64,000 nucleotides of DNA, from NCBI GenBank assembly GCA_026165385.1, contig GCA_026165385.1_4524.1; one strand, 5' to 3'. Below the pieces are notes generated by a model. The model ran no database searches, had not been told where the DNA came from, and was given only the letters and a program-made list of their open reading frames with translations. Both the position numbers and the translations under genes were made by a program. Shown piece after piece: positions 2,263 through 13,692 of the stretch. This DNA is from a phage. Within the stretch, counting starts at the first letter, position 1, and every line of letters begins with the position of its first letter.

Positions 2263-2754
2263 ATGTTTGTAGATGACGTAACTCGTGCCTTCGAATCAGG
2301 TGATTTCGCTCGCCCTAACCTGTTCGAAGTAGAAATCTCTTATCTTGGGCAAAACTTTAGCTTCCAGTGTCGTGCTACGGCTCTTCCTGCTGCGATCGTT
2401 GAAAAGGTTCCTGTTTCTTATATGAACCGTAAAATTAACGTGGCTGGTGATCGTACATTCGATGATTGGACTATTACAGTAATGAACGATGATGCTCATA
2501 GCATTCGTCAGAAATTTGTTGATTGGCAAGGTATTGCAGCAGGACAAGGTAATGAAATTACCGGTGGTAAACCTGCTGAATATAAAAAGACTGCTATCGT
2601 TCGTCAATTTGCTCGTGATGCTAAAACGGTCACTAAAGAAGTTGAAATTGTCGGCTTGTGGCCTACTAACGTCGGTGAAGTATCTCTTGATTGGGATTCG
2701 AATAACGAGATTGAAACGTTCGAAGTAACTCTTGCTCTTGATTGGTGGGAATAA
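2263..2754 (+). CDS. 19: Tail tube protein gp19
   Basis: 163 aa; matches T4 gp19 (MFVDDVTRAFESGDFARPNLF...ALDWWE); follows gene 18. Confidence 0.96.
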   Translation: MFVDDVTRAFESGDFARPNLFEVEISYLGQNFSFQCRATALPAAIVEKVPVSYMNRKINVAGDRTFDDWTITVMNDDAHSIRQKFVDWQGIAAGQGNEITGGKPAEYKKTAIVRQFARDAKTVTKEVEIVGLWPTNVGEVSLDWDSNNEIETFEVTLALDWWE

Positions 2755-2760
2755 TCTGGT

Positions 2761-2776
2761 TGGGGAGAAATCCCCA
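2761..2776 (+). terminator. GNRA-loop hairpin downstream of gene 19
   Basis: TGGGGA-GAAA-TCCCCA 7 nt after the gene 19 stop. Confidence 0.45.
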
Positions 2777-2802
2777 GCTTCCCGTGATGACGGAGAAGTC
2801 CA

Positions 2803-2810
2803 TATAAATA
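2803..2810 (+). promoter_or_regulatory. Late promoter TATAAATA upstream of gene 20
   Basis: Exact TATAAATA within the same 18-mer as at 2181. Confidence 0.65.
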
Positions 2811-2838
2811 TAACTATAATTCCCATTCGGAGAATACA

Positions 2839-4410
2839 ATGAAATTTAATATCTTAAGTTTGTTTGCTCCATGGGCAAAAATGGACGAACGTGATTACAA
2901 AGACCAAGAAAAAGAAAATTTAGAATCTATCACCACACCAAAATTAGACGACGGCGCTAAAGAATACGAAGTATCTGAAAATGAAGCACAGCAAACATAT
3001 AATGCTATGTTTCAGAGAATGTTCGGTAGCCAAGAACCAGGGCTCAAATCAACGCGTGAATTAATCGATACGTATCGAAATTTGATGACGAACTATGAAG
3101 TGGATAATGCAGTCTCTGAAATAGTTTCCGATGCTATCGTATATGAAGATGATACAGAAGTCGTTTCTATAAATTTAGACAACACAAAATTTAGTCCAAA
3201 TATCAAATCAATGATGTTGGATGAATTTAACGAAGTGTTAAATCATTTATCTTTCCAACGTAAAGGTTCAGATCATTTTAGACGTTGGTATGTGGATTCT
3301 CGAATTTTCTTCCATAAAATTATTGACCCTAAACGCCCTAAAGAAGGTATTAAAGAGCTTCGTCGTTTAGACCCACGTCAAGTTCAATATGTCCGTGAAG
3401 TTATTACAACCACTGAAGCCGGTGTTAAAATAGTCAAGGGTTATAAAGAATATTTCATTTATGACACATCACACGAATCTTATGCTTGTGATGGTCGCAT
3501 ATATGAAGCTGGCACAAAAATAAAAATCCCTAAAGCCGCAATTGTTTATGCCCATTCTGGTTTAGTTGATTGTTGTGGTAAAAATATCATTGGTTATTTG
3601 CATCGGGCTATTAAGCCGGCGAACCAATTAAAACTTCTTGAAGATGCCGTCGTAATTTATCGTATTACTCGTGCTCCTGATCGTCGTGTATGGTACGTTG
3701 ATACAGGTAATATGCCTTCAAGAAAAGCAGCAGAACATATGCAACATGTTATGAATACGATGAAAAACCGTATTGCATATGATGCTACTACAGGCAAGAT
3801 TAAAAACCAGCAGCATATTATGTCGATGACCGAAGATTATTGGTTACAACGACGTGATGGTAAAGCAGTAACAGAAGTTGATACATTACCGGGTGCAGAT
3901 AATACTGGAAATATGGAAGATGTACGTTGGTTCCGTAATGCGCTTTATATGGCTTTACGTATTCCTATTACCCGTATTCCAAGTGACCAAGGTGGTATAC
4001 AGTTTGATGCTGGTACTTCTATTACACGAGATGAATTGTCGTTTGGTAAATTTATTCGTGAGCTGCAACATAAATTTGAAGAGATATTCCTAGACCCGCT
4101 TAAAACTAATTTAATTCTTAAAGGAATTATTACAGAAGACGAGTGGAATGATGAAATAAATAATATTAAGATAAAATTTCATCGGGATAGTTATTTCTCG
4201 GAATTAAAGGATGCTGAGATTCTGGAGCGTCGTATTAATATGCTTCAGATGGCCGAACCATTTATTGGTAAATATATTTCTCACAGAACAGCTATGAAAG
4301 ATATTCTTCAGATGTCTGATGAGGAAATTGAACAAGAGGCTAAGCAAATTGAAGAAGAGTCGAAAGAGGCTCGTTTCCAAGACCCCGACCAAGAACAAGA
4401 GGATTTTTAA
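2839..4410 (+). CDS. 20: Portal vertex protein gp20
   Basis: 523 aa; matches T4 gp20 end to end ([18 protein letters not shown]...[10 protein letters not shown]). Confidence 0.97.
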
Positions 4411-11545: not shown

Positions 11546-12964
11546 TTATGGATACGTATAGATGATACCAGTTTCCAAAGCAGTTTTATGGATGATGTAT
11601 CCATTACGTGATTCTTGAACATCAACTTCTGGATAGTCTTTCATCATCTTCTGAAGAGTGTAACGATGCAGGTAGTATTTACTATCTGGATCTTCAGTTT
11701 TCCAATCTTTACCTTCTTCAGTCATTTTTTGGATTTCATCCATAACCCACCAACCACACCAGATGTAAGCTGAAGTACGATGTGGAAGAGGATGAACATA
11801 AGGTAGTTCACCTTCTGGTTCTGGAGCAACTTTATCAGTTACCTGAACTTGACCTTCTGCTGTAATAGTTTTGCTATCATAGTCATCTGCAGTAACGACG
11901 GCGGTCACTTCAATAGTTTGACTTCCAATAGATGAGGTATCAACGGTATAAACATTAGTTGACCCTTCTACAGGAGAAGAATCTTTCTTCCATGAATAAG
12001 TAATTTGTGCCTGTTCCGGTGCATCAGTGACATTAGCGGTAAATGTAGCTGAAGCATCTTGCTGAACGTTAATAGAAGGAGGAGTCAATGTAACCTGTGG
12101 ATTCATTTTCTTCTTATTAACCGTTAATGATACTTCATTCGAAGTAACTTCCTTTGCATCATAATCTGTCGCGGTTACTTGGGCTACACATTTAATTCTT
12201 TTTACACCACTTGTAGTTGGAGTATAGCTAAATGTAGATTTAGTTTCTCCACCAACCTGTGAATCATCTACATACCACTGATACGTAGCAGACGCTCCAG
12301 CCGGTTGAGAAGCTAAGGCAGCAGTAAATTGAACTGGGGTTCCAATTACTCCAGCTGAAGGACTATTGGGAGTTACTGCCAACGTAGTTGTCTGCGTCTT
12401 TTTATTAACAGTCAGTGACACTTCATTAGAAGTAACGCTTAGTGCGTCATAATCTGCTGCGGTTACTTGAGCCACACACTTAATTCTTTTTACCCCGCTT
12501 TCGGCAGGAGTGTAATTGAATGTAGCGTTAGTTGCTTCGCCCACAGGAGAACCGTCAACGTACCATTGATAAGTAGCGTTTGCGCCTGATGGCTGTGAAG
12601 CTAAAGCGGCAGTAAATTCAATAGCTGTTCCTATTACTCCAGCGCCAGGGCTATTAGGAGTTACAGCTAAGGTAGTCGTTTGTGTCTTGTTTTGAACTGT
12701 GATAGTTGTAGAAGCTTCTGCTGTTTCAGCTTCAGCTTCTGGAACTGTATTTGTTGCAACTACTTTAATAGTCTTTTGACCTGCAGGTCCTTTTAGTACA
12801 TAACTAAAAGTTGCTTCAGCTCCATCTTGCGGAACATCATCTACAGTCCAAGCATATGTAATAGTTCCACCTCCAGTTTCACCACTGGGAGTAGCAGTAA
12901 ACTGCTTAGTCTCATCTATAACTCCAGTAGGGGTTTTAGGAGTTATATCAACTGTAAAAGCCAT
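11546..12964 (-). CDS. hoc: Highly immunogenic outer capsid protein Hoc with an extra tandem Ig-like domain
   Basis: 472 aa; Ig-like repeats and C-terminal capsid-binding region; T4 Hoc is 376 aa; two ~95 aa units are near-identical. Confidence 0.85.
   Translation of the reverse strand: MAFTVDITPKTPTGVIDETKQFTATPSGETGGGTITYAWTVDDVPQDGAEATFSYVLKGPAGQKTIKVVATNTVPEAEAETAEASTTITVQNKTQTTTLAVTPNSPGAGVIGTAIEFTAALASQPSGANATYQWYVDGSPVGEATNATFNYTPAESGVKRIKCVAQVTAADYDALSVTSNEVSLTVNKKTQTTTLAVTPNSPSAGVIGTPVQFTAALASQPAGASATYQWYVDDSQVGGETKSTFSYTPTTSGVKRIKCVAQVTATDYDAKEVTSNEVSLTVNKKKMNPQVTLTPPSINVQQDASATFTANVTDAPEQAQITYSWKKDSSPVEGSTNVYTVDTSSIGSQTIEVTAVVTADDYDSKTITAEGQVQVTDKVAPEPEGELPYVHPLPHRTSAYIWCGWWVMDEIQKMTEEGKDWKTEDPDSKYYLHRYTLQKMMKDYPEVDVQESRNGYIIHKTALETGIIYTYP
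12119..12691 (-). repeat. Tandem duplication (2 x ~288 bp) inside hoc, encoding two near-identical Ig-like domains
   Basis: Protein units NKTQTTTLAVTPNSPGAGVIGT... and NKKTQTTTLAVTPNSPSAGVIGT... (~85% identical); the DNA units align at the same period. Confidence 0.8.
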
Positions 12965-12973
12965 AAGTTATCC

Positions 12974-13642
12974 TTATTTTAATGTTACGAAAGAAGAATT
13001 ACGAGTTTCACGAATTAGAACTGATCCATCGCGATTAATATAATAAATTAAGCTAAATAATGTTTGGTGAGCAGAAGCATGCACAAAACTGGTTGGGCGA
13101 GATTTCCAATCTGGAGTTTCGGCTATCCATTGATAAATCCACCAAGGAACAGTAACATATCCTGGGCCTTTGCCTAATTTAATGAGTGTAGGACTAAAAT
13201 TTTCAGGCAGAACAAAATTTACTTCTTTATTTACTTCTGGCTCAGGCTCTTTTTCAGATTCAACAACCTGAGTAATTGCTTCTTCGAATTTATCATGGTC
13301 GAATTCTTTTTCTTGTTCGACAACTTCTAATACTTCAACTTGTTCTGTTGGAGAATCAAACAACAGAATAGCTTCTTCTTTAACTTCTTCGTTGGTGAAA
13401 TTAACACCGTCCACATCATCTGCGGCAGTAATTAAATCAGTGATAGATAATCCATCAGTTTCAGGTAATGGTTCATCAGCCAGTGCGTTAAGAGCTTCTT
13501 CGATATCAATAACAATATTATCGAATGATTTTGATTTCTTAACACTAATGCCAAATTGTTCCGCGTATTCAAACAGTTTAGCTTTGGCTTCCTTTTTATC
13601 AGAAAGAGCACGTAACTCTTCAATATAGTCTTTATCGATCAT
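12974..13642 (-). CDS. inh: Inh-like protein (inhibitor of prohead protease), acidic
   Basis: 222 aa; position between hoc and uvsW and size as T4 inh (226 aa). Synteny-based. Confidence 0.5.
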   Translation of the reverse strand: MIDKDYIEELRALSDKKEAKAKLFEYAEQFGISVKKSKSFDNIVIDIEEALNALADEPLPETDGLSITDLITAADDVDGVNFTNEEVKEEAILLFDSPTEQVEVLEVVEQEKEFDHDKFEEAITQVVESEKEPEPEVNKEVNFVLPENFSPTLIKLGKGPGYVTVPWWIYQWIAETPDWKSRPTSFVHASAHQTLFSLIYYINRDGSVLIRETRNSSFVTLK

Positions 13643-13665
13643 GATATTTCCTCATTATAAATATA

Positions 13666-13673
13666 ACTATATT
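13666..13673 (+). promoter_or_regulatory. Late promoter TATAAATA for uvsW
   Basis: Exact TATAAATA about 20 nt upstream of the uvsW ATG, within the conserved 18-mer variant. Confidence 0.65.
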
Positions 13674-13692
13674 TATTACATGGTAATTTGAC

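Follow-up and report, generated by a model that had tools for sequence, protein, structure and literature searches.

[quoted passage not shown] The T4 protein (NP_049793.1; PDB 5VF3 and 8T1X, among others) is described in PMC10385173 as a fiber of roughly 180 angstroms composed of four domains. Through Hoc, phages adhere to mucus and to fucosylated glycans, and Hoc is also the main display scaffold of T4-based vaccines and vectors; fiber length and domain valency are thus of both biological and technical relevance. The number of domains varies widely in the family (PMC13435897). The 650 Hoc homologs analyzed by Fokine et al. [quoted passage not shown] In Jiaodavirus phages, the fourth Ig domain of a 468-aa Hoc has been ascribed to duplication, and a 373-aa deletion variant with three Ig domains has been reported (PMC9960720).

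The closest described system is the hoc gene of the Tequatrovirus RB30 (AY101183.1, AAM52483.1), a 1419-nt coding sequence specifying 472 aa in the layout D1-A-B-D3-C. Five domain regions are listed in the GenBank record, along with a repeat_region and the remark that the additional immunoglobulin-like domain arose from an intragenic repeat. Literature searches on the RB30 hoc repeat led only to the SegE context, and no paper on the 472-aa allele of E. coli phages was found, the GenBank annotation being the only source.

Identity and domain organization of hoc in the window

We analyzed a 64,000-nucleotide stretch of phage DNA (contig GCA_026165385.1_4524.1), hereafter the window. A single open reading frame of 472 codons plus stop, with an intact frame, spans positions 11546-12964 on the minus strand. 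Its product matched PHROG 1149 ('Hoc-like head decoration', E=5e-138, profile match) and, in a phmmer search, the PDB chains of T4 Hoc (5vf3_Z, E=1.9e-223). Comparison of open reading frames with annotations revealed the same gene order, gp24 - rnlB - 24.2 - 24.3 - hoc - inh - uvsW, in the window, T4, and phage ChristianSchoenbein. On the basis of the PHROG, Pfam, and T4 Hoc PDB matches and of synteny with T4, the open reading frame is hoc. Over its first 25 kb, the window shares 99.1% identity with ChristianSchoenbein (Mosigvirus phapec2) and about 97.7% with moskry and mar005p1, and the best 25-kb matches are Mosigvirus phapec2 and mar005p1 phages. The exact Hoc of the window is already public as protein cluster P0009, which comprises 72 member sequences.

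The gene inh, encoding the prohead protease inhibitor, is located directly upstream from hoc, and the 9-nt gap between the two genes contains an AAGGA ribosome-binding site ahead of the hoc ATG. No exact match to the T4 late-promoter motif TATAAATA was found on the minus strand upstream from hoc and inh; the sole match in the inh-uvsW gap, at 13656-13663, is on the plus strand and directed toward uvsW. Given the 9-nt gap, hoc is probably transcribed by read-through from inh. Over the whole window and both strands, the TATAAATA core occurs 19 times (14 on the plus strand), compared to 7.3 occurrences expected from shuffled sequences, and none of the 100 shuffles reached 19. ARAGORN detected no tRNA gene between positions 1 and 64000.

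The phmmer alignment paired residues 1-113 of T4 Hoc with residues 1-113 of the window protein, and T4 residues 93-376 with residues 189-472. Pfam PKD/Ig_2 matches were obtained inside both of the repeat units designated A and B in Table 1. The AlphaFold2 model (mean pLDDT of 82.7) displays four beta-sandwich domains over residues 1-376, with pLDDT values mostly between 80 and 95, followed by a C-terminal domain predicted with low confidence (pLDDT of 33-65). The domain boundaries of the model, near residues 92/93, 188/189, 284/285, and 376/377, coincide with the unit boundaries, and the register of the repeat is therefore the register of the domains: in the model, one repeat unit is one whole Ig-like domain. 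Foldseek returned strings of Ig domains as top matches, including Dscam, Sidekick, ICAM-5, and the bacterial ice adhesin MpIBP.

Table 1. Positions of the features of the hoc region in the window.
Feature	Position	Strand	Remarks
C-terminal capsid-binding domain	11549..11836	-	aa 377-472; PHROG 21694 at aa 408-472, E=1.4e-41; near-identical to T4 Hoc aa 281-376
Ig-like domain 3 (D3)	11837..12112	-	aa 285-376; Pfam Ig_3/I-set at aa 289-373; model strands E290-376; D342 equivalent to T4 D246
Repeat unit B	12113..12400	-	aa 189-284; ortholog of T4 Hoc domain 2
11-nt tract CAAGTAACCGC in unit B	12171..12181	-	partner tract in the single-breakpoint model
Repeat unit A	12401..12688	-	aa 93-188; 'extra' Ig-like domain relative to T4; DNA group A
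11-nt tract CAAGTAACCGC in unit A	12459..12469	-	identical in unit B; crossover site of the ChristianSchoenbein 288-nt deletion
Ig-like domain 1 (D1)	12689..12964	-	aa 1-92; E29 and G33 present; aligns to T4 Hoc aa 1-113; model strands E4-91
inh (prohead protease inhibitor)	12974..13642	-	directly upstream of hoc, 9-nt gap; gene order as in T4 and ChristianSchoenbein

T4 hoc occupies the same locus, and D1, unit B, D3, and the capsid-binding domain can be aligned over their whole length between T4 and the window (dS of 0.24-0.43). In contrast to the window protein, T4 Hoc contains 376 aa (1131 nt) and three Ig-like domains, and is devoid of an A-type unit. The difference of 96 aa corresponds to exactly one unit, as the initial annotation had proposed from the lengths of the two proteins. 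RB30 Hoc has the layout and length of the window protein, to which it is 92% identical at the protein level and 90% at the DNA level; about 8% of the residues differ, and RB30 belongs to Tequatrovirus, the window being Mosigvirus-like. Unit by unit, RB30 A is 86.5% identical to window A and RB30 B is 90.3% identical to window B, compared to 75.7% between RB30 A and B. A repeat_region is also marked inside hoc in the moskry record. We are confident that hoc in the window belongs to a T4-like phage of the Mosigvirus type and has the common, 'RB30-type' allelic form, in which the D1, A, B, and D3 Ig-like domains precede the conserved capsid-binding domain, the corresponding T4 series being D1, B, and D3.

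Age and distribution of the two repeat units

Tandem Repeats Finder detected a 288-nt period present in 2.0 copies at 12109-12688 (75% matches, 0% indels, score of 654), and a repeat search of the window retrieved the pair 12109-12396 / 12397-12684 (75% identical). Units A and B share 78 of their 96 residues (81%) and 74.7% of their nucleotides, 73 of the 288 positions being different. Since all other in-frame 288-nt segments of hoc are at most 41% identical to unit A (mean of 30%), the A-B repeat is far above chance. The remaining pairs of Ig domains of the protein have about 20 to 26 residues in common out of 90. These data bear out the tandemly duplicated Ig-like domain reported in the initial annotation, in the form of two head-to-tail 288-nt units of one Ig-like domain each, as well as the suggested periodicity of about 288 bp. 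The interval that had been assigned to the repeat, 12119-12691, was right overall, although the repeat starts about 10 nt earlier. The two units are more diverged than had been estimated, since the proteins had been regarded as near-identical and DNA identity had been put at about 85%.

Identity between units A and B amounts to 86, 90, and 48% at codon positions 1, 2, and 3, respectively, and synonymous divergence is saturated (dS of 1.68, dN of 0.12, omega of 0.07). Comparison of the rest of hoc between the window and T4 led to dS values of 0.33-0.43, which places the split between A and B well before the divergence of T4 hoc and window hoc. Relative to the single unit of T4, dS is 0.24 for unit B, which is 91% identical to it at the nucleotide level, and 1.11 for unit A. 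Judged from these substitution rates, units A and B are shown to be ancient paralogs of 'domain 2', both under strong purifying selection.

A pairwise nucleotide matrix with clustering separated the units of various phages into two DNA groups, with 84-99% identity within groups and 75-81% between groups. Group A consists of unit 1 from the window, from the Mosigvirus moskry, from the Tequatrovirus-type phages teqskov and ESh33, and from P0020 and P0005; group B consists of the second and third units and the single T4 unit. Unit A of the window has 84-97% identity with its group A counterparts in moskry, teqskov, ESh33, P0020, and P0005, compared to 75-78% with B-type units and the T4 unit. Clustering was based on whole-unit nucleotides, which gave a cleaner separation than the 18 residues that differ between A and B in the window; these marker residues form mosaic patterns across alleles, and tree-like histories are accordingly an approximation. 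At the level of DNA groups, the A-B arrangement is shown to be common, unit by unit, to Mosigvirus and Tequatrovirus phages.

Megablast matched 685 phage records with whole hoc, 234 with unit A, and 554 with unit B, and a full 1416-nt match is estimated to occur in roughly 200 records from evenly spaced rows of the tblastn ranking. The two-unit hoc is an old, common, and already annotated allele and not a peculiarity of the window genome. The Hocs of ES21 (471 aa) and fHe-Yen9-01 (470 aa) belong to the same 472-aa length class, with a weak internal repeat (34 of 90 residues) or no close one.

Domain gain is not confined to this repeat. The Hocs of the Jiaodavirus Klebsiella phages KP1 and Kpn6N (468 aa) contain, like the window protein, four Ig-like domains and a capsid-binding domain, and that of Kpn5N has 373 aa. 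KP1 Hoc and the window Hoc share only about 50% identity. Its repeat (KP1 locus 301-1707) has a period of 94 aa (residues 186-279 / 280-373, 75 of 94 residues and 78% of nucleotides identical) and involves the Ig domain adjoining the capsid-binding domain. Because a different domain is repeated, the KP1 duplication is independent from that of the window, and domain gain is therefore recurrent in the Hoc family. The Hoc of Serratia phage Muldoon (1174 aa) has the same C-terminal capsid-binding domain but differs by its distant sequence and its far larger number of Ig-like domains, 10 in all (PMC10385173). A search for the C-terminal domain among 1.84 billion cluster representatives retrieved 136 clusters, in which the domain is nearly always C-terminal. 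Their lengths fall on a ladder with steps of about 93 aa, equivalent to between roughly 1 and 15 Ig-like domains, and nine clusters have the size expected for four.

Loss and probable gain of Hoc domains by recombination

Among the best 120 protein clusters, 79 have a length of 376 aa, 29 of 472 aa, and 7 of 568 aa. Judged by this ladder, unit number is shown to move in steps of 96 aa. In ChristianSchoenbein (MZ501056.1), hoc (2501-3631 of the locus, 376 aa) is the window hoc minus 288 nt, in frame. A model with a single breakpoint, at nucleotides 495-506 of the gene, accounts for the ChristianSchoenbein gene with 3 mismatches in 1131 nt relative to the window, and the corresponding protein clusters, P0061 for ChristianSchoenbein and P0009 for the window, differ by 0 aa in this model. 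The breakpoint coincides with an 11-nt tract that is identical in the two units (Table 1). The single unit of ChristianSchoenbein has the head of window unit A and the tail of window unit B. Since it is a chimera of the two units, the one-unit hoc of ChristianSchoenbein is most parsimoniously the derived form, generated by a deletion, and not the ancestor of the two-unit form by insertion. T4 is known to mutate by deletion between short direct repeats, as in the classical rII deletions.

An independent pair of genes led to the same picture. Cluster P0065, which occurs on six metagenome contigs, differs from the hoc of Shigella phage ESh33 by 1 mismatch in 1131 nt under the breakpoint model, with the crossover in a different tract, of 14 nt, at nucleotides 354-368. 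The two pairs of nearly identical genes show, at the DNA level, that crossing over in register between two units deletes one domain exactly, because the register of the repeat coincides with that of the domains.

The 568-aa Hocs (e.g. Escherichia phages UGKSEcP1, P0001, and P0005) belong to the same family, locus, and A/B groups as the window protein but contain three units, A-B-B', and five Ig-like domains. In P0005, B has 99% identity with unit 2 of P0020, B' has 90% identity with both unit 2 of ESh33 and the T4 unit, and identity between B and B' is 81%. Because B and B' are only 81% alike, this make-up points to gain by recombination between alleles rather than by duplication within one genome. 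Units would be gained by out-of-register recombination between diverged alleles during co-infection. Comparison of the 472-aa P0020 with the 568-aa P0005 as a clean recent event was rejected: a single breakpoint leaves 5 mismatches between the proteins, but 30 mismatches in 1419 nt. No description of the 376/472/568 ladder or of its breakpoints in E. coli T-even phages was found in the literature. The present analysis adds DNA-level evidence for the repeated loss, and probable gain, of whole Hoc domains by recombination, including in the closest sequenced relative of the window.

A homing endonuclease gene may be relevant to these exchanges. In T4 and in the P0020-carrying locus, segE is located between inh and uvsW; it is absent from the window, where the gap (13643-13692) is 50 nt in length. 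SegE cleaves the inh-uvsW intergenic region of RB30 and RB52, both devoid of segE, and homing co-converts flanking sequence (PMC2330249). In mixed infections, a SegE double-strand break about 0.7 kb from hoc could promote exchange of hoc alleles and out-of-register repair. An extended scenario, which we regard as speculative and unlikely, is that the hoc array is a recombination-driven contingency locus: one-, two-, and three-unit alleles would interconvert often in natural co-infections through short-tract crossovers and out-of-register exchange, perhaps stimulated by SegE, and fiber length or valency would be selected by the niche, for example the type of mucus. In this scenario, the saturated synonymous divergence between A and B could itself be favoured, since it would slow the loss of the extra domain.

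The origin of the A-B pair itself admits an alternative to duplication, which we consider possible but doubtful. The array could be the out-of-register fusion, in a co-infected cell, of single-unit A-type and B-type alleles that had already diverged, in which case the A/B divergence would be allelic and the present structure would be unchanged. The A-B-B' make-up of P0005, with B and B' from different B lineages, indicates that an inter-allelic mechanism operates at hoc, and SegE cleavage beside hoc promotes co-conversion of the flanks in T4 x RB30 mixed infections (PMC2330249). Single-unit Hocs with a B-type unit (T4) and with a largely A-type unit both exist, the marker pattern of P0090 being that of the first unit of P0014. 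However, A-type single-unit alleles are equally explained as deletions with a breakpoint near the end of the unit, as in P0116 versus P0016 (aa 174-190). Furthermore, separate lineages predict dS values above 1 for the D1 and D3 flanks, whereas values of 0.33-0.43 were obtained between T4 and the window, although recombination could have homogenized the flanks.

Returning to A and B as ancient paralogs, a recent duplication specific to the lineage of the window phage is highly improbable. The closest sequenced genome, ChristianSchoenbein, does have one unit only, as such an event would predict; but that unit is the A-head/B-tail chimera and hence derived, A and B each have orthologs in other genera (84-98% identity), and the units are 48% identical at third codon positions, with a dS of about 1.7. 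The initial annotation had raised the concern that the repeat might be an assembly artefact, i.e. the spurious expansion of a single-copy domain. This concern can be set aside with virtual certainty, since assemblers would not confuse units with 73 differences in 288 nt, hoc has an intact reading frame, an identical public protein has 72 member sequences, and the architecture is common to roughly 200 independent phage records, including the Sanger-era single-gene record of RB30. Finally, the presence of two similar repeats in a surface-exposed ligand-binding protein recalls the template and variable repeats of a diversity-generating retroelement, a reading that was rejected as having next to no likelihood: the mismatches, sorted by the base present in unit A (A 20, C 20, G 18, T 15), are not adenine-specific and gather at third codon positions, and both repeats are translated in one open reading frame.

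Fiber length, glycan contacts, and hoc records

The near-identity of the C-terminal domain to that of T4 suggests the same placement on the capsid for the window Hoc. By analogy with the T4 fiber, the extra domain should lengthen the fiber by about 45 angstroms, i.e. by about a quarter. Hoc binds fucosylated glycans, and the single substitution D246N alters mucus retention (bioRxiv 10.1101/2021.05.11.443681). Contact with MUC2 involves S183-L184-T185 in domain 2 of PNJ-9 Hoc and E29 and G33 in domain 1 of PNJ-6 Hoc (PMC11853027). In the window protein, the sequence SLT is present at residues 183-185 and again at 279-281, E29 and G33 are present, and D342 is the equivalent of T4 D246. The extra domain would therefore supply a second copy of the S-L-T motif that acts as a MUC2/fucose contact in PNJ-9, with the reservation that PNJ-9 hoc is 65% identical to T4 hoc at the nucleotide level and specifies three domains (PMC11853027), so that the S-L-T site may not transfer to the window Hoc.

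The structural interpretation given in the initial annotation, including the domain prediction that it called for, is supported by the sequence comparisons, by the Pfam matches in both units, and by the four beta-sandwich domains of the model. As did that annotation, we infer that a longer fiber would modify adhesion. A reasonable expectation is that a longer fiber with doubled domain-2 valency would have more reach or more avidity in weak binding to glycans or surfaces, attachment to the capsid being unaffected. The extra domain is a long-known and common natural allele that, alone, adds no new biology, and the three-Ig Hoc of T4 is one among several natural lengths. The window phage and ChristianSchoenbein form a natural near-isogenic pair, one domain apart, which provides material for testing the effect of fiber length.

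Two-unit Hocs appear under various names in P0009, P0013, and other records, namely 'PKD domain-containing protein [Escherichia coli]', 'endonuclease [Shigella sonnei]', 'capsid and scaffold protein', 'capsid whiskers protein', and 'hypothetical protein', and some are filed under bacteria; under labels like 'PKD domain protein', 'capsid and scaffold protein', and 'endonuclease', the genes are no longer recognizable as hoc. T4-type hoc sequence (86-94% identity) was also found under the names Staphylococcus phage SAJK-IND (32 kb), Pseudomonas phage PsgM02F, and Proteus phage Isf-Pm2, for which the host labels or the records may be wrong owing to contamination or mislabelling. In Yersinia phage PST (KF208315.1), the hoc coding sequence is annotated only from locus position 691 though the match spans 1420 nt. 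In FriedrichMiescher, hoc is entered as 'Hoc part 1 / part 2', and 172859UKE1 and NHEP10 each have two coding sequences under the hoc match. In these split or truncated records, either hoc, as a dispensable gene, has undergone frameshifts or the sequences contain errors.
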